A DNA stretch of 64,000 nt from Bryobacteraceae bacterium (GTDB lineage Bacteria > Acidobacteriota > Terriglobia > Bryobacterales > Bryobacteraceae). A program made the translations under genes and the position numbers. The notes under the pieces were generated by a model. The model was not told the origin of the DNA, ran no database searches, and saw only the letters and a program-made list of their open reading frames with translations. This document shows, one piece after another, positions 696 to 64,000 of this stretch (position 1 is the first letter of the stretch; the number at the start of each line of letters is the position of its first letter). The stretch is taken from the NCBI GenBank assembly GCA_028275505.1, contig JAPWUP010000002.1:9965-73964 (forward strand), written 5' to 3'.

Positions 696-703
696 TGCGA
701 TCC

Positions 704-3868: not shown

Positions 3869-3901
3869 GCGCGGGCAAGAACTTGTTAGGATGAACGATT
3901 C

Positions 3902-4237
3902 GTGAAGCTTCCCAACCCGGAATTAGCCATCGTGGATATCGGCAAGCTGCGCGACTACTGTTTGAATCCCAAGCATCCGCGGGGGCGACACAAGGCCAGG
4001 GTGTTCGCATCGGTAGGGATTCACCAGACGGACGCAGTAAAGCTGCAGTCAGCGCTGCTTTGGGCAGCCCTTCACTGCGAAGCGGAGAGCGCTCCGCCAA
4101 GTCCTTACGGCGAGCGCTACATCGTGGATTTCGACTACCCCGGGGCAGAGCGCCCGGTGAGGATTCGCAGCAGTTGGATCGTGCGCGCAGGTGAGGGAAT
4201 CCCACGCCTGACGAGCTGTTATGTATTATCAAGGTGA
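3902..4237 (+). CDS. DUF6883-like protein (moron on opposite strand)
   Basis: KLRDYCLNPKHPRGRHKARVF ... YGERYIVDF ... VRIRSSWIV..G...PRLTSCYV matches my recollection of the DUF6883 family. GTG start. Confidence 0.55.
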   Translation: MKLPNPELAIVDIGKLRDYCLNPKHPRGRHKARVFASVGIHQTDAVKLQSALLWAALHCEAESAPPSPYGERYIVDFDYPGAERPVRIRSSWIVRAGEGIPRLTSCYVLSR

Positions 4238-4464
4238 GGTTGGTCATGGCGGAAATCGCACTCCATTCGGTGGTGGCGCTGCTTGAAGACCTGCCCGAAC
4301 AAGGTCTGGTCCGCGGGCAAGTGGGGACGGTGGTGGAGGTTTGGGCACCTGGGGTTTACGAGGTCGAATTCAGTGACGATGACGGGCGCACGTATGCCCT
4401 GGCGTCGCTCAAAGCCGAGCAACTGATGCGGCTCCATCACGAACCTGTCCACCAAGCCGCTTGA
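4234..4464 (+). CDS. DUF4926-like small protein, coupled to the DUF6883-like gene
   Basis: LEDLPEQGLVRGQVGTVVEVWAPGVYEVEFSDDDGRTYALASL matches the DUF4926 pattern. GTGA start/stop overlap with the upstream gene. Confidence 0.55.
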   Translation: MRLVMAEIALHSVVALLEDLPEQGLVRGQVGTVVEVWAPGVYEVEFSDDDGRTYALASLKAEQLMRLHHEPVHQAA

Positions 4465-4488
4465 AAGAGACGATCCCATCAGTCACGG

Positions 4489-5408
4489 TCAGGCATTGCG
4501 CCTCGAACGCTCTTCTTCCCAGCGCGCCTGCTCTTCTTCGATGATGAGCAGGGCCTGGAACTCATCCGCGGCGATCTCATCCAGTGAGAGGCTGACGCCC
4601 AGTTTCAAGGCCGTTCGCAGATCGAGCGCCCGGCGCAGGAGTTGGCCCGCCTCGGAGTTTTGCGCGCCATCCAAGCGGTCGAGCGGGCAATGGTCGCAAC
4701 GGCCGCCGTCATCCGGTGCGTCCGGGCACAGTCGTGGATCGCAGAGTTGCTCCCGCCGCAGCGACCAGTAGACCAGGTAGCGCAGGGAGGGCCGCTCGGG
4801 CCACTCCCCGCTCAGCAGTTTCCCTCGCGCTCCTCAAAGCCGGCCTCGAGCGCATCGATGGCCGCCTTCACTGCTACCGCTTGGTGGATGATCGGGACGG
4901 CGCCGGCGTAGCCCTCGCTCGTCTGGCAGAGCTTCTGATACAGGGTGCCGGCAGCGGCCAAGTTCACCGTCAGCTCCTGGCGGTTGAAGGGCAGATCCAG
5001 AATGCGGGCAAAACCGCGGCGATACTCGATCACGTCTTTGGCGCTCGGCATGCGTAGCACGTGTTCGGTCATCCCACCGGGCACGCGCAGAACGACGCGG
5101 AACCCGCCCGCCTCCTCGAGCACCTCGTCCACATCTGCCTGGCCCAACTGCTCGATGATCCGGCTGGCTTCATAGGCGTCCAGTTCATCACCATCATCCA
5201 AGCGGATCTTAGCGAACAAGGCAGCATCCACCTCTTCGGCGTTCGGGATCGTCGTCTCCGAGACGCCGCGCCCCAGATGCTTGATGATGATCTTGCGGCG
5301 CCGCTGGCGCTCGATCCACTCCTCATCGTTCGGGAAGCGGACCCTGACCGTACGCGCGCCCTCGGCGGAGCGAAGCTGCACGTGGATTTCTTTTTGTGAA
5401 TCGAACAT
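4489..5408 (-). CDS. Tail assembly chaperone -1 frameshift fusion (lambda GT analogue)
   Basis: The -1 frame is open from 4833 to 4489 with no plausible own start. It reads ...GK LLSGEWPERPSL... after the slip at 4818-4824. Confidence 0.6.
4812..5408 (-). CDS. Tail assembly chaperone (lambda G analogue)
   Basis: Acidic protein between major tail and tape measure. Ends ...EEREGNC* with slippery G GGA AAC 2 codons before the stop. Confidence 0.7.
   Translation of the reverse strand: MFDSQKEIHVQLRSAEGARTVRVRFPNDEEWIERQRRRKIIIKHLGRGVSETTIPNAEEVDAALFAKIRLDDGDELDAYEASRIIEQLGQADVDEVLEEAGGFRVVLRVPGGMTEHVLRMPSAKDVIEYRRGFARILDLPFNRQELTVNLAAAGTLYQKLCQTSEGYAGAVPIIHQAVAVKAAIDALEAGFEEREGNC
4818..4824 (-). 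promoter_or_regulatory. Programmed -1 ribosomal frameshift heptamer G GGA AAC
   Basis: X XXY YYZ in the zero frame of the chaperone gene. The overlapping -1 ORF continues for about 110 codons. Confidence 0.6.
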
Positions 5409-5410
5409 GG

Positions 5411-6442
5411 CTATCCGATGTTGTCCTGAGTGGTTTTGGCCACCGCCGTGAGCAGGCCGTTGGTCGCATCCCACAGCGGCGTGCACTCGACCTCGATGGT
5501 CACGATGCCGTCGGTATCGCCGACCACCGCGGTCCGGAAGGCAACCTTGTGGAAGCTCACCTCGAGCGAGTGGTAATCGCTACCCGAGATCAGGTCGCCC
5601 TGAAGGCCGACTACGGCCGTGCCGGTGGTCTGGTTGCGGAGCTTGGTCAGTTCAGTTGAGCCGTGCTCAAAGCGCGCCACAAACTTGAGCGAGGCCTCAC
5701 GGTCACCGAACTCCATCCGGCCGCGGATGGCCGCGCCGTCCTGTGTGCCTGAGCCAGGGTAGAAGCCCGAGTCGAGCCTGAGATTATTCTTGAAGCCCAG
5801 CTCGAGCGAGACCAGGTTGCGGCTGGTGACATAGTCCACGCCGTTGATGGTCACCTGAGCGCTGGCGCCGGGCAGCAGATGCTCGGTAGTGCCCGCCGGC
5901 AGTGTGATTCCGCTCGGCTCCACCAGTTTCCCCGAGCCGGCGAAGTGGATTGCGATACGCGAGTTGGCCCGACCCGGCCCCGAGCCGATCGTGATGGTGA
6001 AATCCTCGATCACGCAGCCCACCGCCATGCGGTCGAGCACCGCGCTCGCGCCCGGCCGGATCTGCTCGACAAAAGAAAACGCCGGCAGCTCAATGCCGCC
6101 CGTAACCGGATCCTGCGGGGTACAAGTATAGGTGATCGCGGGCGGGGTGCCGCTCTTTGTGCGGCCACCCAAGCCAAAGACGAACGCCCAGGCGGCGATC
6201 TCACTGGTGAGAAACTTCTCGATTGAGCCGCTCACGTCCCAGTGGGATTTGAAGACTTGCGTGGCGAACTCGTGCCCTTTGCCGAGATCGGCGGCATCGT
6301 TTTCGGTGTTCAGCGTCACGGTCGCAAGCGCGGCGTTGGTCTTGGTCAGGCTCCAGAGGTCACCGGAGACGTTGGGCGTTGACAGATCGGTCTGTTTCTT
6401 GTAACCAAAGCCGATCTTGGTTTCGCGAATGTTGGCGGGCAT
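5411..6442 (-). CDS. Major tail protein
   Basis: 343 aa, immediately upstream of the chaperone pair (positional call). No family motif recognised. Confidence 0.55.
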   Translation of the reverse strand: MPANIRETKIGFGYKKQTDLSTPNVSGDLWSLTKTNAALATVTLNTENDAADLGKGHEFATQVFKSHWDVSGSIEKFLTSEIAAWAFVFGLGGRTKSGTPPAITYTCTPQDPVTGGIELPAFSFVEQIRPGASAVLDRMAVGCVIEDFTITIGSGPGRANSRIAIHFAGSGKLVEPSGITLPAGTTEHLLPGASAQVTINGVDYVTSRNLVSLELGFKNNLRLDSGFYPGSGTQDGAAIRGRMEFGDREASLKFVARFEHGSTELTKLRNQTTGTAVVGLQGDLISGSDYHSLEVSFHKVAFRTAVVGDTDGIVTIEVECTPLWDATNGLLTAVAKTTQDNIG

Positions 6443-6443
6443 C

Positions 6444-6914
6444 TCAATCTCCCATCTCGGTGAAGCTCACCGTAACTTCGAAGTAGTCTGTCCCTTGCTC
6501 GTCGCTCGCGCGCTGGATCGAAGGCAGATCCATCGGGTGGCAGCGGGGGTGGATGGTGGTGTAGAGCATCTTCAGCGCACTCCCGGCGGGCACGCCGTTG
6601 ACGATCAGATCAAAGAGGCGGTAGTAAGCCGTGGGCGGGTCACCTTCGAGCGTCTCCCGCGCGCGCAGGTAAAGCGAGAGGTTGTGTTTCCAGGCTTCGC
6701 CGGCACCGAAGCTGCCCGGTGTGGTTCCCTGCCAAGCGACCAGGATCGAGGGCACTGGCATCTCGTAGATCGCCAGGGGCAGGCTGACGCGCTTGGGATA
6801 GAGGTCGTGGTAGGCGCGGATTCTTTGCGGGTCGCCTTCCATCTCCGCGACTAGCTCCGGGATCGCGCGCAGCTTTTCAACCAGTGCATCCACCAGCTCA
6901 GCCGGGTTGATCAT
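6444..6914 (-). CDS. Tail terminator / tail completion protein (positional call)
   Basis: 156 aa, tightly packed between the neck gene and major tail (2-nt gap, 4-nt overlap). Confidence 0.4.
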   Translation of the reverse strand: MINPAELVDALVEKLRAIPELVAEMEGDPQRIRAYHDLYPKRVSLPLAIYEMPVPSILVAWQGTTPGSFGAGEAWKHNLSLYLRARETLEGDPPTAYYRLFDLIVNGVPAGSALKMLYTTIHPRCHPMDLPSIQRASDEQGTDYFEVTVSFTEMGD

Positions 6915-8232: not shown

Positions 8233-9237
8233 TCAGGCCTTGGTCGCCCGGACCAGCACTTCGGGCCGGTGGCAGATGGGCAGCGGGTTCGATTGCGTGT
8301 GCAAATCGGTCCCCCGGCCGAACTTGCGCGGCTCCTGCTTGGCGTAGAGGGGCAGGCCGAGCGTGTTGGCGGTCTCGTTGAAGTCCGCCGGGGCAAAGTA
8401 GGTGCGGAACGTGGTGGCCGTGCCCAGCGGGAAAAAGTGCGCCTCACCGTCGGCGATGAACTTGCGCACGGTGCCGCTGGAGTCGGTCGCCTGGCCGCGG
8501 TACTCTTCAAACGTCACCCCGCCGAAGGTGAACCCGGTGCGGTTGTCCGAGAACAGCACCAGGCCCTCGCGCCAGCGCTGGTAGGCTTCCTTGACCTTGG
8601 GGTGCGTGGTCAGCGCGTCGAAGAAGCTCGGCGAGCACAGGCACATCACGCCGGTCATGAACTCGCCCTTGAGGTTGTCCTCGATGTGCCGGCGGACCTC
8701 GAGCACCTTGAGCAGCACTTCGGTCGAGGCCGTGGTCAGGGCGAAGTTCACCACCTTGGGCGTGATCTCGAACTCCTGGTAGAGGTCGTAGAGGGTGGAG
8801 CCGTCGGCATCGAGGATCACGCCCTTGAGCGCGCCCATGCGCAGGTGCTCGAGCGTGATGGCGTGCTTGGCGCGCATGGTCTGAAGCTTCTGGGCCATGA
8901 GGTTGGCCAAAGCGTCCATCTCGGTCTCCGAGCCGAAGGCGCGGATGCCTTGGACCTCCTCGGGCAGCACGACATCGTCGTGCGGAATGTGCGGGATGAC
9001 GAACGAGCGCACCTTGCGTTTCGCCTGCGTGCCCACCGTACCGGGCGAACCCACCGGACGCGTGGGGAGCAGGTTGAGCACGCCGTTCATCTCCTCGATG
9101 ATGATGGTGCGCGTGCGGACACCGACGGGCGGAAACAGGTTCAATTGCTCCAGGCGCCCGTAGGTGTTGGGGATCTTGTTGATGGCGGCCGTGAGGGCCG
9201 CCATGTCGAAAGCGTCGGAAGAAAAAGGATTCAGCAT
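8233..9237 (-). CDS. Major capsid protein, lambda gpE family
   Basis: MLNPFSSDAFDMAALTAAINKIPNTYGRLEQLNLF... is a characteristic gpE-family N-terminus. Follows the decoration gene. Confidence 0.85.
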   Translation of the reverse strand: MLNPFSSDAFDMAALTAAINKIPNTYGRLEQLNLFPPVGVRTRTIIIEEMNGVLNLLPTRPVGSPGTVGTQAKRKVRSFVIPHIPHDDVVLPEEVQGIRAFGSETEMDALANLMAQKLQTMRAKHAITLEHLRMGALKGVILDADGSTLYDLYQEFEITPKVVNFALTTASTEVLLKVLEVRRHIEDNLKGEFMTGVMCLCSPSFFDALTTHPKVKEAYQRWREGLVLFSDNRTGFTFGGVTFEEYRGQATDSSGTVRKFIADGEAHFFPLGTATTFRTYFAPADFNETANTLGLPLYAKQEPRKFGRGTDLHTQSNPLPICHRPEVLVRATKA

Positions 9238-9240
9238 GGC

Positions 9241-9615
9241 TCACGCTCCTTCGCGGACGAGAATGCCCAGGGCCTTGAGTTGCGCCAGGGCGGTGTTCTT
9301 CTGCGGACCCGTAATCCCGCTCGGCCACACCAGCCCCTTGTCGGAGCAGACGGCATGGCGCGCGATGATCACACCCGGGGTGTCCGCCGCGCTCGCATCC
9401 ACGTCACCGATGAGCACGCCGGCCGCGTTCTCCGAGCCGTCATTGGCCGAAGGCGCAAGTTGGGTCGCCATCCCGGTGGCAGTGATGATGCCCACCACGG
9501 TGCCGGTCTTGAGGTTCTGGCCGGAAGCCACCGTCACTTGATCGCGACTGTAGAGGTTGTCCTCTTCGAACTTCAGCCAGTCGCCCAGGTAGTTGGGTTC
9601 GGTCTTGGCAGCCAT
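9241..9615 (-). CDS. Head decoration protein (gpD-like)
   Basis: 124 aa between protease/scaffold and capsid. YLGDWLK.E...DGSENAAGVLIGDVDAS pattern. Confidence 0.65.
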   Translation of the reverse strand: MAAKTEPNYLGDWLKFEEDNLYSRDQVTVASGQNLKTGTVVGIITATGMATQLAPSANDGSENAAGVLIGDVDASAADTPGVIIARHAVCSDKGLVWPSGITGPQKNTALAQLKALGILVREGA

Positions 9616-9616
9616 G

Positions 9617-10750
9617 TCAGTTCCCTCCTTTGGCTAGCCGCTCCACCGCCTTGATGACCGGATTCTGCTCGAGCGGCACTTTGGCGCTGGTGGCGGTCTC
9701 CGGCATCACGTGCGAGCGGATTTCTGGGGCGTCTTCGGCCGCGCGGGCCTCGATGAGATACTGGCGTGCCTCCGCGGCCCTGGCGTGCTTGGCGAGCAGC
9801 GCGGCCGCTCGCGCCGGCAGGCCGGCCAGGGCACACAGCTCGACGATCTCGCGCGCCTCGGCGTAGCCTTCGCGGTGCGCTTCGGCGCGGATCGCCTCCA
9901 GGTCGATGGTGGGCTCGGGCACTTCCGCCCGAACCGTTTCTTCCTTCATACGTCTGCCTCCTTGCGCAATTGAAGTTGGTCTTACGAATGCGGCCAGATC
10001 GGCGAGCGCCGTGCGGAAGGTGCCCGTGCGGTCGGCCAAGCCGGCGGCCACGGCGTCGGGGCCGTACTTGAGGGCAGCGCCCAGTTGGCGCACGGCCTCA
10101 GAACTGAGCGGGCGGCGGCTGGCTACGGCTTCTACGAACAGCCCGTAGAGCCGCCGGACTTCGGCCTCAAGCGCCGCCCGCGCCGCCTCCGACAGCGGCT
10201 CGTTGGGGTTGCCGTCGGTCTTGCCTTCGCCCTCGGCGATGTAGGTGACCTTGACGCCCAGCTTGCGGTTGTACTCGCTCCAATCCACGTGCTCGGCGTA
10301 GACCCCGATCGAGCCGGCGCCACCGGTGAACTCGGGCACATAGATCCGCTCCGCCGCTGTTGCCAGCAAGTACGCTGCGCTGAACATCGAATTATCGGCC
10401 ACGGCCCAGATCGGCTTCTGGCGCGCCAGTTCGGCCAGCGCGGCTGCGGTCTCGAAGGCGTTCTCCGAATCGCCGCCCGGCGAATTGACGCGCAGCAGAA
10501 CGCCGCGCACCTCGGGATCAGCGATGGCCTGCTCGACCTCCTCAAGGATCTCGCCGTAGGCCGTAGCGCCCAACAGGATCGCATCGAACAGCGATGGCTC
10601 GTTGGCCAGCACGCCGGCCACATCAACCACGGCCACACCGTCCTGAACCGCATATGGCCTGCGCAAGCCGTAAGTGGCTTCCAATTTACCCACCTCAACC
10701 AGCAGCGGCTTGGCGCCCAATAGGCGCAGGACCTGTTCGCGTCTCCTCAT
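9617..10750 (-). CDS. S49 (SppA/ClpP-like) prohead protease with C-terminal scaffold region (lambda gpC/Nu3 analogue)
   Basis: VLLRVNSPGGDSE ... FSAAYLLATAAERIYVPEFTGGAGSIGVY. Ala-rich helical C-terminus. Confidence 0.85.
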   Translation of the reverse strand: MRRREQVLRLLGAKPLLVEVGKLEATYGLRRPYAVQDGVAVVDVAGVLANEPSLFDAILLGATAYGEILEEVEQAIADPEVRGVLLRVNSPGGDSENAFETAAALAELARQKPIWAVADNSMFSAAYLLATAAERIYVPEFTGGAGSIGVYAEHVDWSEYNRKLGVKVTYIAEGEGKTDGNPNEPLSEAARAALEAEVRRLYGLFVEAVASRRPLSSEAVRQLGAALKYGPDAVAAGLADRTGTFRTALADLAAFVRPTSIAQGGRRMKEETVRAEVPEPTIDLEAIRAEAHREGYAEAREIVELCALAGLPARAAALLAKHARAAEARQYLIEARAAEDAPEIRSHVMPETATSAKVPLEQNPVIKAVERLAKGGN

Positions 10751-53572: not shown

Positions 53573-55825
53573 TCAGGCGTCCTCGTCGGTTTCGTAGCGG
53601 CGGTAGTACTTGTAATACTTGCCGTAATAGCCGTAGTACCCGTAGTAGCCGTCGCTGAGCGAGGGCGTCACTTCGTTCAGGACCACGCCCAGAATATTGG
53701 CCCGCAGCCGCTCCAGCACGCCTACAGCCGAGGCCAAGGCCTTGCGATGCGTCTCGCCCGCTACCGTGACCAGCACCACGCCGTCCACCGCAGCAGCCAT
53801 CTGAAGCGGCTCCGGGAACCCGAGCACCGGTGGCGAGTCCACGATCACCAGGCTGTACTCGTTTGCCGCCTCGCGCAGGATGGCCGGCAGCGCCTTGCCC
53901 AGCGCATCCGCGGCGGCGCGCGAGGCAGGACCGGCGGGCAGAATGTCCAGCTCGGGCAGACCCTCCACGCGCACGAGCTGGTCGCGCCAGTTGCCACCCT
54001 GCGTCAGCAGCACCGAGAGGCCCGCTTTCAAGTTGCCGTCCATACCAAAGAAGTTCGCCACGCCAGGCCGGCGCAGGTCTCCGTCAATCAGCAAGGTGCG
54101 ATCCTTTTGCTGCGCGTGCGCCACAGCAAGATGCACCGAGACCGTCGTCTTGCCTTCCCTCGGCCCGGCGCTGGTAATCAACACGCTCTTCAGGGGCTGC
54201 CCGATTGACCCTAGAAGGATCGAGTTGCGCAACGTCCGGATCGCTTCGCTGAAAGGGGCACCCGCTTGCGGGACGGCGGGCGCGCGCAATTCCTTCACGG
54301 GCACAAGCGAGGTCTGAGCACCTTGCGGACTTGCCGCCGGCAGCAACGGGCGCTTGCGCCACTCCTTCACCAAAGGCAGGGATCCCACCACTTCGGCGCC
54401 CGTCGTCAACCGGACGATCTCGGGATCGCGCACGGTCTTGTCCAGGCTGTCGCTCAGGATGGCTACGCCCACGGCGACGAGGCTGGAGAGCAGGAACGCG
54501 AGCGCGAGGTTGAGCCGCGTGTTGGGGAACACGGGGTTCAGCGGCGGGCGCGCGGGATCTGCCAGCCGCACGGCGCTGTTCTGAAAGCCGGCGTTGATTC
54601 CGGCTTCCTTGATCTTGCGCAGCAGCTCCTCGTACAGCTTCTTGTCCGCGTCAGCTTCCCGTTTCAGGGCCTGGTACTCGAACCAGCGGGCGTTGAGTCG
54701 GTCCAGCTCAGCCTTGGTCTGCTCGACCGCCTTGCGGAGCATCTCCTCGCGGTTTACTGCCTGCCGGTACTCGGCCTCCACCCGCCGCAAGATGCTACGC
54801 CTGGTCTCCTCGACCTGCCGTTCCAACTGGGCCACTTGCGTCGCAACGCGCCGATACTCGGGATGGTTGGGTCCGTACTGAGCTTTGATGACCGCGAACT
54901 TTTCCTGCGCTTCATCCAAGCGATCGCTCAACTTTTTCAGGGCCTCGCCCTGCGAGGACGCCAGCGCGGCCTCCAGACTGCCGCTGCGAACCGAGTTGTA
55001 GGCCGCCTCCTTGGCCACCCGATCGGCCTGCGCGTTGGTGTACTCGGTGTTGAGTTGCAGGAGGCGGGCGGAAAGGATGTTGGTCTTCTCCTCGGGGTTG
55101 ACGACGTTCAGCTCGCGCTCGAACTGGGCCAGGGCCGCGCTGGAGCGTTCCATCTTCGCCTTCAAGTCCTCGAGCTGTTTCTCCATGAAGCTGGAAAGGC
55201 CTACCATGGAGCGGTAGCGGATCGAGTAGGTGTGCTCGATGTACGAGTTGGCAATCGCGTTGGCGACGTCGGCAGCCAGTCGCGGATTCGGGCAGCGGTA
55301 GCTGATCTGGATCAGGAAGGTGTTCGGCGGACGCGTCACTTTCAGGCCGGGCAAACCAACCGGGGCATCCTCGCGATTGACTTCCGGCAGCGACTCCTGC
55401 TTGGCTCCCGGGTTCTCGTACAGGTGGAACCGGCGCACCACCGGGCGCAGCACGGAGTCCGATTGGATCAGTTTGACCTGGGTAGCCATGAACTGATCCG
55501 TGTTCCAGTCGGCCACGGGCGTGGCTTCCTGCCCGAGAATGCCACGCGGCACAGTGCGATCCACGTCTACGGTGGCGGTAGCCTCATAGAGTGGTTGCAA
55601 GCGCGAAGAAATGATGTAGGTGCCCGTCACGCAGCAGGCGACAAAGGCCAGGATCTTCCAGCGGTGACGCTTAAGAATCCACCAGTAGCGGCTCAGGGTG
55701 GGTTCCGCCGGCTCGTACTCCACGTACTCCTGGCCGTACCAAGGCGGGGGCGCATAGACCGGGGCCGGCGGCTGGCCGCTGCCGCTGGCCGGTGGCAATG
55801 CGGGGTGTCGCTCGCGCTCGTCCAT
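53573..55825 (-). CDS. wzc: Polysaccharide co-polymerase / BY-kinase (Wzc/GumC-type tyrosine autokinase)
   Basis: Wzz-like N-domain with 2 TM and a long coiled coil. Walker A SAGPREGKT. C-terminal Tyr cluster DGYYGYYGYYGKYYKYYRRY. Confidence 0.85.
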   Translation of the reverse strand: MDERERHPALPPASGSGQPPAPVYAPPPWYGQEYVEYEPAEPTLSRYWWILKRHRWKILAFVACCVTGTYIISSRLQPLYEATATVDVDRTVPRGILGQEATPVADWNTDQFMATQVKLIQSDSVLRPVVRRFHLYENPGAKQESLPEVNREDAPVGLPGLKVTRPPNTFLIQISYRCPNPRLAADVANAIANSYIEHTYSIRYRSMVGLSSFMEKQLEDLKAKMERSSAALAQFERELNVVNPEEKTNILSARLLQLNTEYTNAQADRVAKEAAYNSVRSGSLEAALASSQGEALKKLSDRLDEAQEKFAVIKAQYGPNHPEYRRVATQVAQLERQVEETRRSILRRVEAEYRQAVNREEMLRKAVEQTKAELDRLNARWFEYQALKREADADKKLYEELLRKIKEAGINAGFQNSAVRLADPARPPLNPVFPNTRLNLALAFLLSSLVAVGVAILSDSLDKTVRDPEIVRLTTGAEVVGSLPLVKEWRKRPLLPAASPQGAQTSLVPVKELRAPAVPQAGAPFSEAIRTLRNSILLGSIGQPLKSVLITSAGPREGKTTVSVHLAVAHAQQKDRTLLIDGDLRRPGVANFFGMDGNLKAGLSVLLTQGGNWRDQLVRVEGLPELDILPAGPASRAAADALGKALPAILREAANEYSLVIVDSPPVLGFPEPLQMAAAVDGVVLVTVAGETHRKALASAVGVLERLRANILGVVLNEVTPSLSDGYYGYYGYYGKYYKYYRRYETDEDA

Positions 55826-55879: not shown

Positions 55880-56857
55880 TCAGTCTCGGCCGGTGCGCCA
55901 GATCAGGATGCCACTCGCGGTCGTTGCCCCGAAGCCGGCAATCCTATCAAGCGCCTGGATGGTGGCCCTCCTTCCCGAGCGATCCGGAACGTAGAGGATG
56001 TCATTTGCGACCAAAGGGACGTCCGGGGCCTTGCGCTCCATCAACTTTTTGAGCTCGACGGGCAGTTCGCGGACCGCGCCGGTGCGCTCATCCCTGCGGA
56101 TGATGTAGGCCTGCTTGCCTGCGTACGGCGCGAGGCCCTCAGCCAGCGCCAGCACGCGGAGGACGGTGGTTTCGGTTCCCTCGACGAGCGGGAAGGCCCC
56201 GGGCTTTTTGACGTTGCCAACCACGTACACCTTCCCGGCCTCGGGGACGCGGATCTCTTCGCCGCCGTAGAGCTTCAAATTCGCCTCGGGATCCGCCGAA
56301 TCGAACAAGGCCTTGACCGCCACACGACGCGTGATCTGGACCGGCTTTCCGTCCGGACCCTTTTGCGTGTGGGTGACGAGAATTTCAGGACCCGCGTCGG
56401 GATTCAGCCCTCCGGCCCGCGTGAGCGCCTCCAGCAACGTGACTGCGCCCACGGCCTGGAAGGTGATCGGATTGCGTACAGCACCTGCCACCGAAATGGG
56501 GCGGCTGAAGTACTCAACCACGGTCACAGTCACAACCGGGTCCACGAGCAACTGTTCCTGCTTTAGCGCGCTGGCGATGGCTTCCTCCAGCTCCGCGGGC
56601 AGCAGCCCTTGCGCGGCGATCCGTTGCTTGAGCATGGGCAGGCGGATAAACCCGTCCGCCGAGACCCGGACCGTGCGCGTCAACTCCGGCGCGTCGAGCA
56701 CGGAGACCGCGATCAAGTCGTTCGCTCCGATCGGCTGGGCCGGCAGATTCGCGGCGCCGGGTTCTACCGCGGCTGGGGGGCGTGGCGCCTGCCCCATGCA
56801 CAGAGGCAGCATGAAGCTGGCCAGAGATAGACACACCGACACCGCGCGCATGGCCAT
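55880..56857 (-). CDS. wza: Polysaccharide export outer-membrane protein (Wza-type; Poly_export + SLBB)
   Basis: Signal peptide. PIGANDLIAVSV ... VSADGFIRLPML ... RPISVAGAVRNP ... YVVGNVKKPG. Confidence 0.85.
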   Translation of the reverse strand: MAMRAVSVCLSLASFMLPLCMGQAPRPPAAVEPGAANLPAQPIGANDLIAVSVLDAPELTRTVRVSADGFIRLPMLKQRIAAQGLLPAELEEAIASALKQEQLLVDPVVTVTVVEYFSRPISVAGAVRNPITFQAVGAVTLLEALTRAGGLNPDAGPEILVTHTQKGPDGKPVQITRRVAVKALFDSADPEANLKLYGGEEIRVPEAGKVYVVGNVKKPGAFPLVEGTETTVLRVLALAEGLAPYAGKQAYIIRRDERTGAVRELPVELKKLMERKAPDVPLVANDILYVPDRSGRRATIQALDRIAGFGATTASGILIWRTGRD

Positions 56858-57499: not shown

Positions 57500-58357
57500 T
57501 CAAGGACTTACAGGAGCAGCAGGACCGCGCGTGACTGCGATTGCGACTCCTGCCACTGCACCGCCTATCGCTACTCCGGCTATGATCGCTTTCGTTTTAG
57601 CTGTCAAAGCCGCTTTGGCAGGCTTGGGCGCTGCGGGAGGCAGGGGGCATCCACGTTCCACCAAGCGAACCTCCACCACACGGATCACCTGCGTTGCCCC
57701 GGGAGCGGGCTTTGCAGCGGGTTCGACCGTGCCCGTGATCTCGATCCGATCGCCCACGCGCGCGTCCAAACCCGTACCGACGAGCTCCACCGTGATGCCG
57801 GCTGTCGCGTCGGTCAAAAGAAAGCGCCCGTCCTTCTTCTCCAGGCACCCAGAAAGCTTGGCGGCAGCAGCAGCACCCGCCACTTGGGGCTCGAGCACCA
57901 CTGCCTTGCCCGGCCAAACCTTCGCCACCGTAATGCCACCGGCCTTTACAACGCGTGCGGGCGCCTCAAAGGCGGTGACGTGTAGGGCTGAGTTCCCGGT
58001 CGCATCCACCAGCGCTCCCCCCTCCGGCTCGATCCACAACCCAAGGGCTTCCAAGCGGTAACCCGATCCTTTCAACATCTGCACCTTGCCCTTTTCGAGC
58101 AAGAACCGGTCACGATGAACCCGCCCTGCGGTATAGGGACCGAGCCGCAACCGCACGCCGGAATGAAGCTGCAGGTCGGACGTGGCTTCGCTGGTTTCGA
58201 TGAAGCTCCCGTCGAACACGGTCGCGCTGCCGTGTGCTGGCGCCGCGTCGAGGCGAAATTGCCCGTCCGCCACGACAAGCCCGATAGGGGTCCCCGCAAC
58301 GTTGCCCGCTAGCAGCAGAACGGTGCTCAGCAGTGCCATGAATATCACTCGCCACAT
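57500..58357 (-). CDS. Signal-peptide protein with FecR-like N-domain and C-terminal membrane anchor
   Basis: MWRVIFMALLSTVLLLAGNVAG. C-terminal AIIAGVAIGGAVAGVAIAV. No catalytic motif. Confidence 0.45.
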   Translation of the reverse strand: MWRVIFMALLSTVLLLAGNVAGTPIGLVVADGQFRLDAAPAHGSATVFDGSFIETSEATSDLQLHSGVRLRLGPYTAGRVHRDRFLLEKGKVQMLKGSGYRLEALGLWIEPEGGALVDATGNSALHVTAFEAPARVVKAGGITVAKVWPGKAVVLEPQVAGAAAAAKLSGCLEKKDGRFLLTDATAGITVELVGTGLDARVGDRIEITGTVEPAAKPAPGATQVIRVVEVRLVERGCPLPPAAPKPAKAALTAKTKAIIAGVAIGGAVAGVAIAVTRGPAAPVSP

Positions 58358-58446
58358 AACGATGTCTCCTCGCAGCGCCAATTTGGCTCGTCCCTCGTAT
58401 TATAGGGCACGTCGCTTGTTAGTACAATACTGCGCGATAGAAGACC

Positions 58447-59568
58447 GTGGCGTCGGACAATCGTCAGACAAAACACCTTACCCGCTTCTCTCCCCCCAAC
58501 TACTACGAGGAGCTTGGGCTCTCGCGTCATGCGAGCCCGGAGGAAATTCGGCGAACCTATCGTAATCTGGCCTGGCTATTGCATCCGGATCGCTGCCAGG
58601 ACGATGACATGAGGCGAGTGGCCGAGGCGCAGCTCAAGCGTCTGAACGCGATCGTTGCTGTCCTGCTCGATCCCGAGCAGCGGCGCCGCTATGACGAGAG
58701 CCTGGAGCGCTCCGAGGGCTCCTGGTTGTGGAAGATCCGTGCCTTACAAGTCCGGCTCGCCGCGCTGAGCGCTACCCGGTCCCGCTCATGGGTTTGGGCG
58801 GGTGGCGGTCTCCTCCTGCTTGGCTTGCTGACGTGGCTGGTGGTGGCGAAACCCAGCCGTGCTCCACGTTCCCTGAGCTCGGCGACACCGCACGTGCAGC
58901 GTGACCTGGCGGAAAACAGAGCCGTTCCCGCAAAGCTGCAACCCGCTCCGGCGGCTCTTCCTTTAGCGGGCGCCCCTCAAAGAACTACGAATTCGAAGAA
59001 GCTACCGCAGCTCGCGCCTCCGCAACCCGAGGCGGACGACATCCAGACGACGCTCGAACTTCCGCGTTCCGAGTCGCCTGCGCCCCACGCCGAATCCGCC
59101 AGTGAGCAAGCTTCACCACCCGCGCCTTCCATCGCGGAGGCCGCCCCATCGACGCCAAGGCCTGCGGAGGGCGGCCCGGCACGCGACCGCTCAGCTCGTA
59201 CTTACTCAGGGTGGTGGGTGCTTGTGCCAGGCAAGGCCACAGAAATGCCCGCTGAATTATACCCTCCCATCTACGTGGAGATGTTCATCGAGCAAAAAGG
59301 CGCGGTTCTCCGCGGCCGCTACAAGGGCCGTTACCAAGTCACTGATCGTGCGATCTCGCCCGAAGTCAGCTTCACCTTCGAGGGTCGAGCTCAGGGTGAC
59401 GAGCCTGAATTCACGTGGCGCGGCGCCCAGGGCGCCGAGGGACGGTTGCGCTTGCGCTGGGTAGGTGAAAACTCGATGGAAGTCCGCTGGTGGACCACGA
59501 ACTTCGGAACCGAGCTGGGGCTGAGCTCGGGCATCGCCACGCTGATCCGGGTGGAAGACCGCCGATGA
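58447..59568 (+). CDS. J-domain (DnaJ-like) membrane protein
   Basis: NYYEELGLSRHASPEEIRRTYRNLAWLLHPDR (HPD). One TM (WVWAGGGLLLLGLLTWLVV). Pro/Ala-rich linker. Confidence 0.7.
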   Translation: MASDNRQTKHLTRFSPPNYYEELGLSRHASPEEIRRTYRNLAWLLHPDRCQDDDMRRVAEAQLKRLNAIVAVLLDPEQRRRYDESLERSEGSWLWKIRALQVRLAALSATRSRSWVWAGGGLLLLGLLTWLVVAKPSRAPRSLSSATPHVQRDLAENRAVPAKLQPAPAALPLAGAPQRTTNSKKLPQLAPPQPEADDIQTTLELPRSESPAPHAESASEQASPPAPSIAEAAPSTPRPAEGGPARDRSARTYSGWWVLVPGKATEMPAELYPPIYVEMFIEQKGAVLRGRYKGRYQVTDRAISPEVSFTFEGRAQGDEPEFTWRGAQGAEGRLRLRWVGENSMEVRWWTTNFGTELGLSSGIATLIRVEDRR

Positions 59569-59599: not shown

Positions 59600-60823
59600 G
59601 TGATGCGAGTGCTCACGCACCGTTTGCCGGCGCTCGGCCTGGCGATCGCTTTAGCGGTGGGTTTCTACTGGTCCGTGCGATTGACTCAGGCTGATACCTA
59701 CTATCGCAGGGCTACTGCAGAGAGCCTGGCACGCGCCCTTATCCTGGATCCGGGCAACGCAGATTATCAGCTCGCCTGGGCCGATGTGGTCTCCGGGGAC
59801 TACCTGACGGCTTTACAGCGGGCCGTGCGACTCAATCCGTTTCAGTCGTCGTTGTGGATGGAGCTCGGCTTGCGCGCGGAGATGGAAGGCGATTTGGCGC
59901 TGGCGGAGAAAGCCCTGTTGGAGGCCGCCCGGCGCGACCGCACGCACAAACCCAGGCTCATGCTGGCCCACTTCTATTTTCGTCGCGGGAACCAGACGGC
60001 CTTCTGGCGTTGGGTCCGCGAGGCCCTCGCGACTGCGCCTTCCGATGCCTCGATTTTGTTCCGCCTGTGCTGGAGCCTGACCCAGGACGCCGACGCGATT
60101 CTGGAGCGTGCGATCCCGGCCCGTCGCGAAATCATCGCGCAGTACATCAACTTTCTTGCCGCCGAGCGGCGTTGGCGCGCAGCCGTTGCGGCCGCCGAGC
60201 GGCTGGCCGCGATTGGCGACTCTGCTGACGCCGACGTGCTTGAAGGTCTCTGTGACCGCCTCATCCAGGCCGGAGAGAGCGCCCTGGCCGTTGAGACCTG
60301 GAACCTGCTCGCCGCACGGCGTTGGGTACCTTACCCGGCGCTGGATCCATCACGCGGGGTCATTCTCACCAACCCTGATTTTGAGCATCGAGCTCGCCAG
60401 CGAGGCTTTGATTGGCGCATGTCACCGAGCGAAGAAATTACTATTGCGCGCGATCCAACACAAGCGGCCCTGCGAATTTCTTTTACTGGTCGCCAAGCAG
60501 AGCCATATGAAATTCTGGCCCAGTATGTACCCTTGGTTCCCGCGACGCGCTATGCCTTCCGGTTCGAGTTCCACACAGTGGACATTCCCGCAGGGGCCGG
60601 CCCTCGCTGGATCATCCTCGAAGGATCGAAACCACCGAGCGAACTGGCGCGAACCGATCCCCTGTTCGCTCCCGATTGGGCCAAAGGCGAGTTGGTCTTT
60701 CAGACCGGGCCCGCCACCCGGATCGGACGGCTGGTCTTTGTGTACCGGCGAGAGCCTGGGACCACGCGGATCAGTGGCTCGATCTGGTTGCGGCGCCTGG
60801 CCCTCGCCATTGCAAGCCAGTGA
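59600..60823 (+). CDS. TPR-repeat protein with C-terminal beta-sandwich (carbohydrate-binding-like) domain
   Basis: N-terminal TM. TPR-like helices (NADYQLAWADV, LWMELGLRAEMEGDLALAEKALLEAA). C-terminal FRFEFHTV ... GSIWLRRLAL. Confidence 0.6.
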   Translation: MMRVLTHRLPALGLAIALAVGFYWSVRLTQADTYYRRATAESLARALILDPGNADYQLAWADVVSGDYLTALQRAVRLNPFQSSLWMELGLRAEMEGDLALAEKALLEAARRDRTHKPRLMLAHFYFRRGNQTAFWRWVREALATAPSDASILFRLCWSLTQDADAILERAIPARREIIAQYINFLAAERRWRAAVAAAERLAAIGDSADADVLEGLCDRLIQAGESALAVETWNLLAARRWVPYPALDPSRGVILTNPDFEHRARQRGFDWRMSPSEEITIARDPTQAALRISFTGRQAEPYEILAQYVPLVPATRYAFRFEFHTVDIPAGAGPRWIILEGSKPPSELARTDPLFAPDWAKGELVFQTGPATRIGRLVFVYRREPGTTRISGSIWLRRLALAIASQ

Positions 60824-61238
60824 CCCCTCGGGATTCGCCCAGGGCCTGCGGCCGCGGGACACGCGTGTTGTGGACCGCAACTGCACCCATCAATCCCGCG
60901 GCCACGAAGTTCGTTGTGGCTGAAGTCCAGTATCGCTCCGACCATGAGGATTTCCGTGAGACCAGGTATTCGGTGAGGACAGCCGCGGAAGCGATCGAGA
61001 ATTTCACGGTCAGTGCCTTGCCATAGCTCAGCCTGCCATCAGGCCCTCGCAGAATGGGATTCGCCTCGAACTTGTGCCGTGATGTATGAACATCGAGATA
61101 ATTGGCGGCGTAAAGACCAAAAATGGAAATCAGCCAAAGTTTCTTGCCTTTCTCCCGTTGTTGGCCGTAAGTTAGCTGTCCCGAGAATAACAGGCCCAGA
61201 AGCAAAAATACACCCGTCCTGCTGCACCGCGCGCGCAC
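60771..61238 (-). CDS. Hypothetical membrane protein
   Basis: GTG 61238 with AAGGAG 8 nt upstream. Signal-like N-terminus. HKFEANPILR motif. Confidence 0.45.
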   Translation of the reverse strand: MRARCSRTGVFLLLGLLFSGQLTYGQQREKGKKLWLISIFGLYAANYLDVHTSRHKFEANPILRGPDGRLSYGKALTVKFSIASAAVLTEYLVSRKSSWSERYWTSATTNFVAAGLMGAVAVHNTRVPRPQALGESRGVTGLQWRGPGAATRSSH

Positions 61239-61387
61239 CTTTTGTTCTCCTTGACCCGCGTCGCCTGCCGGGCGTTGCCAGCCCGGGGTTCGACCACGCT
61301 GTCAACGGACTTATCGGTGCGCGCGGCACAACCTTGAGCAAGCAGGATCGGGAAAGGTGTAGCTGAGTGAAAGTTACTGACGAGCGG

Positions 61388-62560
61388 TTAGTGCTGCAAC
61401 AGGCCCCGGATCGCAGGCTTGAGCCCGTGCTTGACGATCAGACGTCCGGCTCGCAACGGGTAGTAAAGCGGGGAGAGAAGCCGGGGCAGAGGCAGGATCT
61501 GAAGTTCGATGGTCGTGGGAGCCAACAGAGTGTAATAGGCGCAAATCACTTTGTGCTGCCAGCGATCGAGTACTCGCAGCGTGAACCACAGATCGGCGAG
61601 CGCGGACCTGGGAGCTCCGTTGCGCCAGCTCGCGATGACCCTCTGGCCGATCTCGCTGGCTTGTCGCCACACGCCTTCGCCCGCCCACAGACCAGCGGGG
61701 GCGCTGACGCCCATCACCTTCTCGGCCAGCCAGCACGAGGTGGCAAGGGCTCTCGAAGCGCCCGCGCGCTCGGCCAGTTGCCTCAGCTCAGCGCGATTCA
61801 GAACCTGTGCGTGCATGAACCACGCAATGTCCGCGACTTGTTGGAGTGTCGACCACCGGTGCTTGGCTGCATGCACACAGAGCAGAAAGAAGGAGTGCTC
61901 AGGCGAGGGTTGCAGGATTCTCCGGCCCTCGAATTCAGTCCACCGGGCGCTTGCCCAGACGGCTTCGGCCGGGAAATCGCAAGGATAGGACTTCGGAAAA
62001 AGCTCCCAGTGCGGTTCCACGGAGATCCCATTGCGGCCGCCGAAACAAAACTCACAGTTCTGTTGCAACGTGAGGGCTTGCTGGGCGGCGTTGAGTTCCG
62101 GCGCCAGCCGAAAGCCGCGGGCACGCAGCGTTTCGCAAACGGCTTGGAGATCCTCCCGGCGCACCAGCAGGTCGAGGTCGGCGCTCGCACGCACGGCAGC
62201 CTCTCCGTAAAGAAATTTGGCCAGCACCGGGCCGCGCAACGGAATCACCGGAACGCCCCTGCGCTCCAGTTCATCGAGCAGGCCGTGCAGTTCACGACAT
62301 AGCGTGAGGCTGCGGGCAGCGGTCCCGCGCAGGAGGTTCCGAAACTGTGCGACGATCGGCTCCGGGATCGCCTCCACGCGGTGTTGCTTCAGGCGCCACC
62401 AGACGAGGGGCGCGACACCGAGCTGCTTTGCCGCCTCGAGGACGTGCTCCCAGTCGGCATTGATCGCGAGGCTATGCAACGCCGCGGCGTCGGGAGCCGG
62501 CCTAGTCGCCTCGACCAGAAACTCGATCTCGGCTCCCAAATCCGTTCCTGGCTTGGGCAC
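61388..62560 (-). CDS. Nucleotidyltransferase-family protein (the 'uncharacterised nucleotidyltransferase' family often next to PqqD/lasso-type genes)
   Basis: IPLRGPVLAKFLYGEAAVRASADLDLLVRREDL..ARGF, then ISVEPHWELF. Confidence 0.65.
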   Translation of the reverse strand: MPKPGTDLGAEIEFLVEATRPAPDAAALHSLAINADWEHVLEAAKQLGVAPLVWWRLKQHRVEAIPEPIVAQFRNLLRGTAARSLTLCRELHGLLDELERRGVPVIPLRGPVLAKFLYGEAAVRASADLDLLVRREDLQAVCETLRARGFRLAPELNAAQQALTLQQNCEFCFGGRNGISVEPHWELFPKSYPCDFPAEAVWASARWTEFEGRRILQPSPEHSFFLLCVHAAKHRWSTLQQVADIAWFMHAQVLNRAELRQLAERAGASRALATSCWLAEKVMGVSAPAGLWAGEGVWRQASEIGQRVIASWRNGAPRSALADLWFTLRVLDRWQHKVICAYYTLLAPTTIELQILPLPRLLSPLYYPLRAGRLIVKHGLKPAIRGLLQH

Positions 62561-62563
62561 GCC

Positions 62564-63598
62564 TTACTCCGCCAGGGGTGCCGGCCGCAGGCCTGTTCGC
62601 GCATAGGCTTTTTCGCAATCCAGTCGCGAGGGCCCCAGCAGATCCCCTTCCATGTATGCCAGGCCCGGGCAGCGCGAACAGACGTTGTGCAGCTCACAAG
62701 TGCGGCAAACCACCAGATCAGCGTTTCGCACGGCGCGCCAGCGCAGGAGCGCGGGCGATTCGCGCCAGATTTTCTCGAAACTCTGCTCCCGGACGTTGCC
62801 CAGCCGCAGTGGGAACTGCACGCACGGGTACACGTCGCCGAAAGGAGAGATGTAGCATGCGGTATGCCCCGCAGAGCAGGGGAGCTCCGCGAGGGCCGAA
62901 GGCGCCGATCGCGGCGAGTCCGGCATCAACGGCCCAACCAGCTCGGGGTCATTGTAAATCTCGCGCCAGATCGCGTCCGGCACGTTCAATCGGAGCACGC
63001 CCGCATTTCCATCCAGGCGGGGAGTGATCGTCGCGTCCAATTTGTAAGTGGCGCCCAGCTCAGCCGCGAGCCGCCGCACTTCAGTGTAACTCGCAGCAGC
63101 TTGGCGCATCAGAACGTGCGAGATCTGGACCTTGACCCCGCGGGACGTCAGTTCCCTGACGGCTGCCATGGTGCGAGCGAAGGAGCCGGGAGCTTGTGTC
63201 ACGGCGTCGTGGATCTCGGGCTGGTGGGAATAAAGCGAGACGTCCACCCGCGCCACATTCAACTCTGCCAACCGCCGCACCGCCTCTGCTTCCAGCATGG
63301 TTCCATTGGTCTTTACCGTGATGTAAAAGTTGAGGCGGCGCGCCCGTTCCATGATATCGAACAGATCCTCGCGCAGCATAACCTCACCGCCGCTGAGGCA
63401 CAGGAACAGGGTCCCGCAGGCGGCAAGCTCCTCGAGAACCCGGCTCACCTCCTCCAACTTCAGCTCCGGCCCCTCCCGTTGCACCAGGTAGCAATGCACA
63501 CAACGGAGGTTGCATCGCCAGGTAAGATCGAGATGGACGTTCCAGGGAATCCCCAAGCGCAGGGCTTTTTCGTGAACTTCGCCCAGCAAGCGGCTCAT
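62564..63598 (-). CDS. Radical SAM enzyme with C-terminal SPASM domain (peptide-maturase type)
   Basis: CNLRCVHCY (CxxxCxxC), SGGEVMLR, and a C-terminal Cys cluster CSAG..CYISPFGDVYPC ... CRTCELHNVCSRCPG. Confidence 0.85.
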   Translation of the reverse strand: MSRLLGEVHEKALRLGIPWNVHLDLTWRCNLRCVHCYLVQREGPELKLEEVSRVLEELAACGTLFLCLSGGEVMLREDLFDIMERARRLNFYITVKTNGTMLEAEAVRRLAELNVARVDVSLYSHQPEIHDAVTQAPGSFARTMAAVRELTSRGVKVQISHVLMRQAAASYTEVRRLAAELGATYKLDATITPRLDGNAGVLRLNVPDAIWREIYNDPELVGPLMPDSPRSAPSALAELPCSAGHTACYISPFGDVYPCVQFPLRLGNVREQSFEKIWRESPALLRWRAVRNADLVVCRTCELHNVCSRCPGLAYMEGDLLGPSRLDCEKAYARTGLRPAPLAE

Positions 63599-63897
63599 CT
63601 CCCGTCCCCGCCGGTAATCGGCTCCCCCGAGACTATCAGGATGCCCTTTCCCGCCAACTGTTCGACCAACTCCCGGGCGTCGCTGTAGGCCTCATCGAAT
63701 CCCACGTCGTAGCGGGTGACGATGTGCTGGGCAACGATTTCGGCCAGCGGTGTCCGGCCGTCGGCGCATTCCCAGATTTCCGCCGCCACCTCGTTGAGCG
63801 TGAACAGTGAGGAGTCGGAGGCCGAAATCACGATCACCTCATCCTCCAGACGACGCCAGGCCGCGGCGGGATGTCGGGCGATGTAGACTGGATCCAT
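63595..63897 (-). CDS. PqqD-family protein (RiPP recognition element-like)
   Basis: About 100 aa. WRRLEDEVIVISASDSSLFTLNEVAAEIWECADGRTPLAEIV...DARELVEQLAGKGIL. 4-nt overlap with the rSAM gene. Confidence 0.7.
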   Translation of the reverse strand: MDPVYIARHPAAAWRRLEDEVIVISASDSSLFTLNEVAAEIWECADGRTPLAEIVAQHIVTRYDVGFDEAYSDARELVEQLAGKGILIVSGEPITGGDGR

Positions 63898-64000
63898 CAG
63901 ATCCTCTCCCACACGTCTGGCTCAGGCCGAAACTCGAGGCGGTAAACGGGGGTGGAGCGGGTGAACTGGCAAACGGCGTTCAGGACCGCTTGCACCGACT
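63897..64000 (-). CDS. C-terminal 33 codons of an upstream gene in the same operon (runs off right edge)
   Basis: The open frame ends ..TPVYRLEFRPEPDVWERI*, with TGATG overlap to the PqqD start. Confidence 0.35.
   Translation of the reverse strand, partial: SVQAVLNAVCQFTRSTPVYRLEFRPEPDVWERI

Follow-up and report, generated by a model that had tools for sequence, protein, structure and literature searches.

A precursor peptide beyond the window edge and a candidate phospho-peptide pathway around a PqqD/radical SAM cassette of a Bryobacteraceae bacterium

What does a radical S-adenosylmethionine (SAM) enzyme act on when it is encoded next to a peptide-recognition protein and no peptide gene is in sight? 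This question is raised by one end of a 64,000-nucleotide stretch of DNA from a Bryobacteraceae bacterium (GenBank assembly GCA_028275505.1, contig JAPWUP010000002.1, forward-strand positions 9,965 to 73,964; hereafter the window), where genes for a PqqD-like protein, a radical SAM/SPASM enzyme and a nucleotidyltransferase follow a gene that is cut by the window edge. The original prediction, made from the letters of the window, took these four genes for a maturation cassette of peptides made by ribosomes and modified after translation (RiPPs), whose substrate would be either a peptide encoded past the edge or something non-peptidic linked to the neighbouring polysaccharide genes. The RiPP assignment holds, and the substrate gene does lie past the edge: a precursor family travels with the cassette in related loci, and the stop codon of the precursor gene of this strain is found 1,176 nt beyond position 64000. 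We are confident that the locus is a peptide-maturation operon acting on this precursor, and from sequence comparison the cassette is best described as part of a large uncharacterised family in which a phospho-peptide module, of the type that makes the linear polyphosphorylated peptides (LPP) of Bacillota, is joined to a radical SAM/SPASM maturase. An orphan cassette thereby becomes a testable six-gene pathway with a named substrate.

Within the window, all four genes lie on the minus strand where they had been predicted. The cut gene contributes its last 33 codons and its stop (63897..64000, stop codon 63897-63899) and encodes an ScmC-family P-loop protein, the rest of which falls at 64001-64703 in virtual coordinates, i.e. 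those beyond 64000. It is followed by the gene for a discrete PqqD-like recognition protein, or RiPP recognition element (RRE), of 100 aa (63595..63897; PF05402, E 1.3e-15), by that for the radical SAM/SPASM enzyme of 344 aa (62564..63598; PF04055, E 1e-23; PF13186, E 1e-12), and by the last gene of the operon, for a 390-aa member of PF14907, the 'uncharacterised nucleotidyltransferase' family (61388..62560; E 9e-55 over the whole profile). The translational coupling claimed for these genes stands at two junctions, a TGATG with a 1-nt overlap where the PqqD ATG sits on the upstream stop codon and an ATGA with a 4-nt overlap between PqqD and radical SAM genes, and fails at the third, where 3 nt without overlap separate the radical SAM stop codon from the GTG start of the nucleotidyltransferase gene. 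The 149-nt gap 3' of the operon (61239..61387, minus strand) contains no precursor-like open reading frame (ORF) and no terminator-like site. That no precursor is encoded in the gap or the cassette was borne out for the window as a whole: a profile of 56 precursors from related loci, run against all six frames, gave a best E of 0.09, and a six-frame search for the leader motif found none.

The exact radical SAM protein is present on six public contigs, two of which (L002 and L003) are 100% identical to the last 11,437 nt of the window. Because L002 matches the window end at 100%, its positions 1-4503 can be taken as a faithful extension of the window, with window positions given by 68504 minus the L002 position. 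This extension turned up both a short ORF and an HPr-kinase-like gene, the two things for which an extension to the right had been proposed, and the latter is the cut gene itself, as its fold and P-loop (see below) indicate. The short ORF encodes a precursor of 61 aa, MAMEREDIRDQKQVSEIAQQPATGRRPYVKPAFHWEPVFETMALTCGKTPPAYGSCTPAHS (L002 3143-3328; virtual window positions 65176-65361), with a GGAG 9 nt ahead of its ATG. After 41 nt comes a gene for a 155-aa homologue of SEC11/SipW-type signal peptidases (L002 3370-3837), which overlaps the start of the complete ScmC-like gene of 268 aa (L002 3801-4607). Ahead of the precursor lies the sole promoter-like site of the region, a sigma-70-like TTGACA-17-TAGACT (L002 3033-3061; 0.2 such sites expected by shuffling), and upstream of it a divergent Wzy_C gene. 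Read 5' to 3', the operon thus consists of promoter, precursor, peptidase homologue, ScmC-like protein, PqqD-like protein, radical SAM/SPASM enzyme and PF14907 protein; its 3' two-thirds are inside the window, and its first three genes lie partly or wholly outside.

The 61-aa peptide has relatives well beyond its own species. Searches of the flanks of radical SAM relatives with a regular expression and then a hidden Markov model (HMM) recovered a homologous short ORF in 74 of 90 loci (80 kept loci and ten metagenomic ones); of the 72 loci in which its position could be scored, 68 have it beside the peptidase gene. The 72 distinct peptides follow the consensus PYxKPxFRxExVFET-xALxCGKxxxTxxxCxxxRKxS and then stop. 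In the leader, Y and P of the YxxP motif are invariant, E74 is conserved at 99% and FET at 90-97%; in the tail of 20-22 residues after FET, the A, L, C, G and K reach 96-99% and the second Cys 97%. Exactly two Cys occur in 67 of the 72 peptides, 69 (96%) end in Ser, and the length from PY to the end is identical in 63. Core position 3 is Leu in 96%, whereas hydroxyl residues at core position 4 (Ser or Thr, ~68%) and position 11 (Thr, 82%) vary more. The precursor of the window strain is a divergent member in which leader, both Cys and terminal Ser are retained. NCBIfam and Pfam scans assign the precursors to no family, and a similarity search with the 61-aa peptide returned only the peptide of the same species, because that search requires shared words of five residues. 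The other genes travel together as well: by phmmer across the 90 loci, the radical SAM gene is accompanied by PqqD in 89, by the ScmC-like gene in 86, by the peptidase gene in 80 and by PF14907 in 42, several of the shortfalls being contigs that end early. The PqqD gene adjoins the radical SAM gene in these loci, and PF14907 is found within 6 kb in 41-42 of them and directly 3' of the radical SAM gene in 15.

Two comparisons show how such precursors vary at close range. Strains L001 and L002 are ~95% identical in DNA, and the first 50 codons of their precursor genes (L001 6823-7020, L002 3143-3328) are nearly unchanged; over the final 11-15 codons the two share neither sequence nor length (TPAWGEHPKCPGSPHSS vs TPPAYGSCTPAHS), with the second Cys and the terminal Ser present in both. 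On another Bryobacteraceae contig, L050, a second and different ScmC/PqqD/radical SAM set (3355-6762) has a short ORF ending in ...KKPYRKPVLVQIPLRPEEAVLGNCKTAGTAGPVSGSNCSPVGNCSSIGT, which shows the same YxxP leader logic, a Cys-rich core and a terminal Thr.

The ScmC-like protein belongs to PF27840 ('ScmC') by precomputed annotation and matches the NCBIfam model TIGR04249 (ScmC) weakly (E 2e-10, 40.4 bits against a cut-off of 125). HprK_rel_A (TIGR04352; E 1.7e-5, 24 bits vs 200) also falls below its cut-off, and there are weak matches to HprK_rel_B and phosphoenolpyruvate carboxykinase (PEPCK). An AlphaFold2 model built from 32 homologues has a mean predicted local distance difference test (pLDDT) score of 89 and a predicted template modelling (pTM) score of 0.86, and a Foldseek search of the Protein Data Bank (PDB) with it retrieved ATP-dependent PEPCK (E 1e-9) and, from HPr kinase/phosphorylase, the C-terminal catalytic domain (E 4e-4). 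The P-loop GxSGxGKTT (G141, S143, G146, K147, T148 and T149) and a following L-L-x-D-E (D163-E164) are invariant in the 32 sequences, and in a phmmer alignment both line up with the nucleotide-binding motifs of PEPCK. On this modelled fold and these motifs, the product of the cut gene is a putative peptide kinase of the PEPCK/HPr-kinase fold, which gives the ScmC family, with at least 5,000 database proteins, its first functional hypothesis. For the peptidase homologue, TIGR02228 (archaeal-type signal peptidase I) scores best among the curated models, at E 4e-10 and short of its cut-off, and a profile of 13 family members retrieves human SEC11C (4e-8) and SEC11A (3.5e-7). Ser30, His68, Asp83 and Asp89 are invariant in the family, and the alignment to SEC11 spans the SM-P, HRV and GD stretches that bear the first three of these.

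Of the genes inside the window, the radical SAM enzyme carries the cluster motif C29-x3-C33-x2-C36 and a full SPASM Cys set (C241, C259, C298, C301, C307, C310 and C328), both kept across 26 relatives, in the conserved pattern CX12GX4C ... CX2CX5CX2C ... C. Its best sequence matches in the PDB are SkfB (2e-14), BlsE (3e-12) and PqqE (2e-11), with SuiB and CteB also found. The PqqD-like protein has six NCBIfam matches, none at cut-off; a profile of its family matches the RREs of lasso peptide systems in the PDB best (TbiB1, 3e-10; PbaB1, 9x90, 8e-9; TfuB1, 1.4e-6) and PqqD (7e-4) and LppB (9x8z, 3.7e-3) more weakly. The nucleotidyltransferase has no NCBIfam match and no PDB sequence match, and an AlphaFold2 model from its single sequence was unusable (pLDDT 41); by eye, an ASADLDLLV motif (DxD) stands where a nucleotidyltransferase fold would have one.

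Taken together, these genes recall the LPP clusters of Bacillota, lppA-K-B-S-D-N (Popov et al., Nat Commun 2026, PMC13381572). At their core are genes for the signal peptidase LppS, which is SipW-like and of archaeal type, for the discrete recognition protein LppB, for LppK, a kinase resembling HprK, for LppN, an uncharacterised nucleoside triphosphate (NTP) transferase, and for an exporter of the MsbA kind. The LPP leader follows the consensus YxxPxVLxHQxIxFETxxS; LppS cuts after T-1 of FET, aided by the recognition protein, and LppK adds up to four phosphates to Ser3 of the core (PMC13381572). LPP clusters often lie within capsular polysaccharide loci, as paeninodin clusters of Bacilli likewise tend to, and the authors state that LPP are confined to Bacillota; their text contains none of the words 'radical', 'SPASM' and 'Acidobacteria' (PMC13381572). 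Our loci share with LPP the SipW-type peptidase homologue, the discrete PqqD-like RRE, the YxxP...FET leader (here PYxKPxFRxExVFET) and, in the lineage of the window, adjoining polysaccharide genes; the kinase-like protein of PEPCK/HprK fold and the uncharacterised NTP transferase, going by fold and by description, may be further common features. Our loci differ in having a radical SAM/SPASM enzyme, unmentioned for LPP, in all 90 cases, and in a short, conserved core of fixed length that has two Cys, ends in Ser and lacks Ser at position 3, whereas LPP C-termini are long and variable. In addition, FET stands two residues nearer to YxxP, the recognition protein scores higher against lasso B1 proteins than against LppB, and the hosts belong for the most part to Acidobacteriota and in some cases to Binatia or Proteobacteria. 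As for the exporter, tblastn with an ABC (ATP-binding cassette) ATPase found no MsbA-like or other ABC exporter in the 64-kb window, and no ABC family is present among the called genes of L002 and L091. No description of an LPP-type module combined with a radical SAM/SPASM enzyme was found in the literature searched.

A second point of comparison is offered by lasso peptides of the paeninodin type. In pseudomycoidin, the HprK-like PsmK phosphorylates the C-terminal Ser, and the addition of one or two hexoses to the phosphate requires PsmN, a member of a 'family of uncharacterized nucleotidyltransferases' (PMC6993621). These systems (PadeK/PsmK, PsmN; PMC6993621) resemble ours in their HprK-type kinase (a putative one in our loci), nucleotidyltransferase, B1-like recognition protein and terminal Ser, and differ in using another type of protease for the leader and in having a cyclase where our loci have a radical SAM enzyme. 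Neither an asparagine-synthetase-like lasso cyclase nor a B2 transglutaminase-like protease is present in the precomputed Pfam annotation of the L002 and L091 genes. The original statement that cassettes with PqqD, nucleotidyltransferase and HPr-kinase-like genes are defined only by comparative genomics is therefore outdated, given that phosphorylation of a lasso peptide followed by hexose addition (PMC6993621) and the making of phosphorylated linear peptides by the LPP module (PMC13381572) have been demonstrated.

By analogy with these systems, a scheme can be proposed in which the PqqD-like protein would bind the leader through Y-x-x-P and present the peptide to the enzymes. The radical SAM/SPASM enzyme would use the two conserved Cys to cross-link the tail, thioether bridges being the likeliest form, and the kinase-fold protein would phosphorylate a Ser. 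The likeliest acceptor is the C-terminal Ser, the only near-invariant hydroxyl residue, for which paeninodin and pseudomycoidin offer direct precedent. The nucleotidyltransferase might decorate the phosphate, for example with a hexose as PsmN does, and the signal-peptidase homologue would cut the leader after FET like LppS, which in the window strain would release MALTCGKTPPAYGSCTPAHS. A sister locus, L008 (1-3574), fits the scheme: the kinase and peptidase genes are gone from it, and where FET would stand its two precursors read VEAV, their last residues being Pro and Cys and not Ser. We consider the scheme as a whole, including the roles assigned by analogy, to be probable. Its specific chemistry, namely thioethers at both Cys, a phosphate on the terminal Ser and glycosylation of that phosphate, is put forward more tentatively, its chances ranging from somewhat doubtful to about even. 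The two Cys, the fixed length and the terminal Ser of the precursor offer clear targets for mutation.

Several points count against this scheme. LppN was inactive in a heterologous host (PMC13381572). Since core position 3 is nearly always Leu in our precursors, the phospho-acceptor must differ from Ser3 of LPP. The likeness of our proteins to LppK, LppS, LppN and PsmN is one of published descriptions and not of sequence alignments, LppN and PsmN being placed in PF14907 solely by the phrase 'uncharacterized NTP transferase'; and while gene order, family and fold assignments and the conserved precursor were observed directly, every modification is read from genes alone. About ten seemingly complete loci have no precursor within 6 kb, and over half of the 90 loci have no PF14907 gene within that distance. 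In L026, neither an ScmC-like nor a peptidase gene occurs within 8.3 kb and the precursor nonetheless ends in Ser, so the link between kinase and C-terminal Ser is not clean; a strict coupling of the two, with which L008 agrees, is contradicted by this locus. For the radical SAM enzyme, no curated NCBIfam equivalog comes near its cut-off, the scores being 156 bits of 500 for ahbD, 142 of 500 for NirJ2, 137 of 265 for MftC, 120 of 625 for StsB, 111 of 650 for WgkB, 109 of 381 for PqqE, 108 of 400 for ScmE, 90 of 400 for ScmF and, for the sactipeptide maturases AlbA and SkfB, 85 of 850 and 63 of 300. Only two curated models align over the full length, that of the mycofactocin maturase MftC and that of a sactipeptide maturase. 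Because the enzyme scores below all curated cut-offs and MftC is among its best full-length matches, thioether formation is no more than the simplest way to read two conserved Cys, and a C-terminus-directed reaction of the MftC kind is conceivable. By the same scores the enzyme is not placed in any well-characterised non-peptide family; such a placement had been named as a way for the peptide reading to fail.

The L008 locus is also of interest for its structure. From inside the 3' end of the radical SAM gene through the nucleotidyltransferase gene (95% identity in amino acids) and onward, it is 91% identical in DNA to the window strain; upstream of window position ~62885 (L002 5619), an arrangement of precursor-radical SAM, PqqD and precursor-radical SAM takes the place of the cassette. 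Its two radical SAM copies are 99.4% identical to each other and 54% identical to that of the window; behind the first of them stands a fragment of a nucleotidyltransferase gene. The arrangement suggests that a module was swapped, the break falling within the SPASM-coding region.

Other readings of the locus keep some of these elements and reassign the rest. SPASM enzymes catalyse many types of reaction, and one may argue that the pathway works on the peptide at other sites: an internal Ser or Thr (core position 4 or Thr11) might be phosphorylated, or the kinase-fold protein might be an ATP-dependent scaffold, the Cys might form a disulfide, and the radical SAM enzyme might install a C-C or C-O cross-link or an epimerisation. 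LppK, which targets a Ser near the cleavage site instead of the C-terminus, speaks for this, as do the frequency of hydroxyl residues at those two positions and the terminal Ser that L026 retains without a nearby kinase gene. Yet both internal residues are less conserved than the terminal Ser, the L008 locus without kinase and peptidase genes has no peptide that ends in Ser, and C-terminal Ser phosphorylation by HprK-like kinases has direct precedent, and we therefore regard this version as unlikely.

MftC acts on the C-terminal residues of its peptide, as might be expected here if the precursor gave rise to a small peptide-derived cofactor or ligand, comparable to pyrroloquinoline quinone (PQQ) or mycofactocin, that serves a secreted protein of 600-950 aa. 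Such a protein, without a Pfam match, flanks the cassette in 55 of the 90 loci; in addition, MftC and PqqE are among the matches of the radical SAM enzyme in the model and PDB comparisons, respectively, and the C-terminal Ser is, like its spacing, almost invariant. However, the MftC and PqqE scores are far under their cut-offs, the entire 22-residue tail is conserved and not merely two residues, and no cofactor-dependent oxidoreductases or enzymes of later steps were identified among the recurrent neighbours. The secreted protein is missing from both the window and the 4.5 kb of L002 beyond it, and the logic of leader and peptidase agrees with that of LPP. A cofactor precursor is accordingly quite improbable in our judgement.

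More improbable still is the second option of the original prediction, a non-peptidic substrate, here from the neighbouring exopolysaccharide (EPS) pathway. The radical SAM enzyme and the nucleotidyltransferase would in that case modify an intermediate, sugar or lipid-linked, that leaves the cell through Wza/Wzc. The cassette does lie at the edge of a large EPS locus, with Wzy_C upstream and, downstream, Wza (55880-56857), Wzc (53573-55825) and past these GT2 and GT4 glycosyltransferases, a flippase and methyltransferases; the placement of LPP and paeninodin clusters in capsule loci is similar, and BlsE, a sugar-nucleotide decarboxylase, is among the PDB matches of the radical SAM enzyme. The description of the cassette as next to the EPS export genes is right as to neighbourhood and too close as to distance, for Wza and Wzc are ~4.5 kb away, beyond five ORFs on both strands. 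These encode a 155-aa hydrophobic protein (60771-61238, minus), a 407-aa tetratricopeptide-repeat (TPR) protein (59600-60823, plus), a 373-aa DnaJ-domain protein with a Pro/Ala-rich linker (58447-59568, plus), a 293-aa protein without a Pfam match (57500-58381, minus) and a 138-aa protein, the first four being conserved only in the window's own lineage (L001-L003 and L008). Likewise, homologues of Wza, Wzc and Wzy_C are confined among the 90 loci to this lineage (L001-L004 and L008), and the proposed check for co-occurrence with Wza/Wzc loci was thus negative outside it. Therefore, the EPS association is not a trait of the family, whereas a conserved precursor and a peptide-recognition protein accompany the radical SAM enzyme in most loci. 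By Pfam, L007 has a Wzy_C gene and a PEP-CTERM protein.

A link between the peptide pathway and polysaccharide is nevertheless retained at low probability because it echoes the placement of LPP clusters in Bacilli. As a long shot, the mature product could be a cross-linked peptide to whose C-terminal phosphoserine the PF14907 protein attaches a sugar and, in the boldest form of this idea, a peptide primer or anchor for building or tethering exopolysaccharide units. Such a product would account for the siting of related phospho-peptide clusters among capsule or EPS genes in two settings, Bacilli and this Acidobacteria-like lineage. If true, radical SAM enzyme, kinase and nucleotidyltransferase would together yield a peptide-phosphoglycan conjugate, a type of product undescribed in any RiPP class.

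Returning to the candidate phospho-peptide operon and its radical SAM enzyme, its components overlap with several other systems. The SynChlorMet cassette (TIGR04248-TIGR04251) was defined by comparative genomics, and we know of no product for it. It likewise combines an ScmC-family protein (PF27840), a PqqD homologue and radical SAM/SPASM enzymes in one operon, but has two radical SAM enzymes where our loci have one, and the peptidase, the nucleotidyltransferase and an identified precursor are additions here. Membership was rejected on this single radical SAM gene and on scores below cut-off for ScmC (given above), ScmD (23.4 of 100), ScmE and ScmF. Membership in the HPr-rel-A system was rejected on the TIGR04352 score, no HPr-rel-A PqqD model being among the six NCBIfam matches of the PqqD-like protein. 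With the maturases of sactipeptides and ranthipeptides (SkfB, AlbA, StsB, CteB and PapB), our system shares a two-cluster SPASM radical SAM enzyme, a recognition element and a Cys-bearing core; it differs in that the recognition element is a separate protein and the core has only two Cys, and the StsB, AlbA and SkfB scores place the enzyme outside the curated sactipeptide maturase families. Mycofactocin and PQQ biosynthesis (MftB/MftC and PqqD/PqqE) is similar in pairing a discrete PqqD-like protein with a SPASM radical SAM enzyme and a short peptide, and MftC aligns over the full length. In contrast, the downstream cofactor genes are absent here, a kinase-like protein, a signal-peptidase homologue and a nucleotidyltransferase standing in their place, and membership in the MftC and PqqE equivalog families was likewise rejected by score.

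How widespread is this combination? More than 2,200 relatives of the radical SAM enzyme are found in the database at E <= 1e-30, and at least 582 stretches that encode one turned up when each species was represented by a single genome. About 70 of the 80 kept loci are from Acidobacteriota (Terriglobia, Terriglobales, Acidobacteriaceae, Sulfotelmatobacter and Bryobacteraceae) and the remainder from Binatia, Lysobacteraceae/Thermomonas, Nevskia soli and other Proteobacteria. A phospho-peptide toolkit reported so far only from Bacillota would thus be extended to soil bacteria, mainly Acidobacteriota, at no fewer than ~580 places in species-representative genomes, and joined there to radical SAM chemistry. 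Acidobacteriota abound in soil and peat but are poorly cultured, and few natural products are known from them.

The secreted 600-950-aa protein is a more frequent neighbour of the cassette than PF14907. Its gene shares the strand of the cassette and immediately precedes the precursor or follows the radical SAM gene (L019 7284-9152, L007 3546-5219, L010 3024-5165 and L026 5639-7447 are examples). The protein has a signal-peptide-like N-terminus and a conserved C-terminal end, C-A-[VI]-K-L-T-Q-x-x-L-Q, and gave no Pfam match at E up to 1. Other genes for peptide modification or transport accompany single loci or small groups of them. On the 1.3-Mb contig L010, a YcaO-TfuA pair, i.e. genes for thioamide-type peptide modification, lies on the opposite strand directly after the radical SAM gene (8457-10507). 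In L012 (2155-3998), L014, L017, L038 and L063, two adjacent ABC ATPase genes, without a counterpart in the window, lie directly upstream of the precursor, and in L051 a 676-aa ORF of the same ABC ATPase cluster follows a second precursor-peptidase pair.

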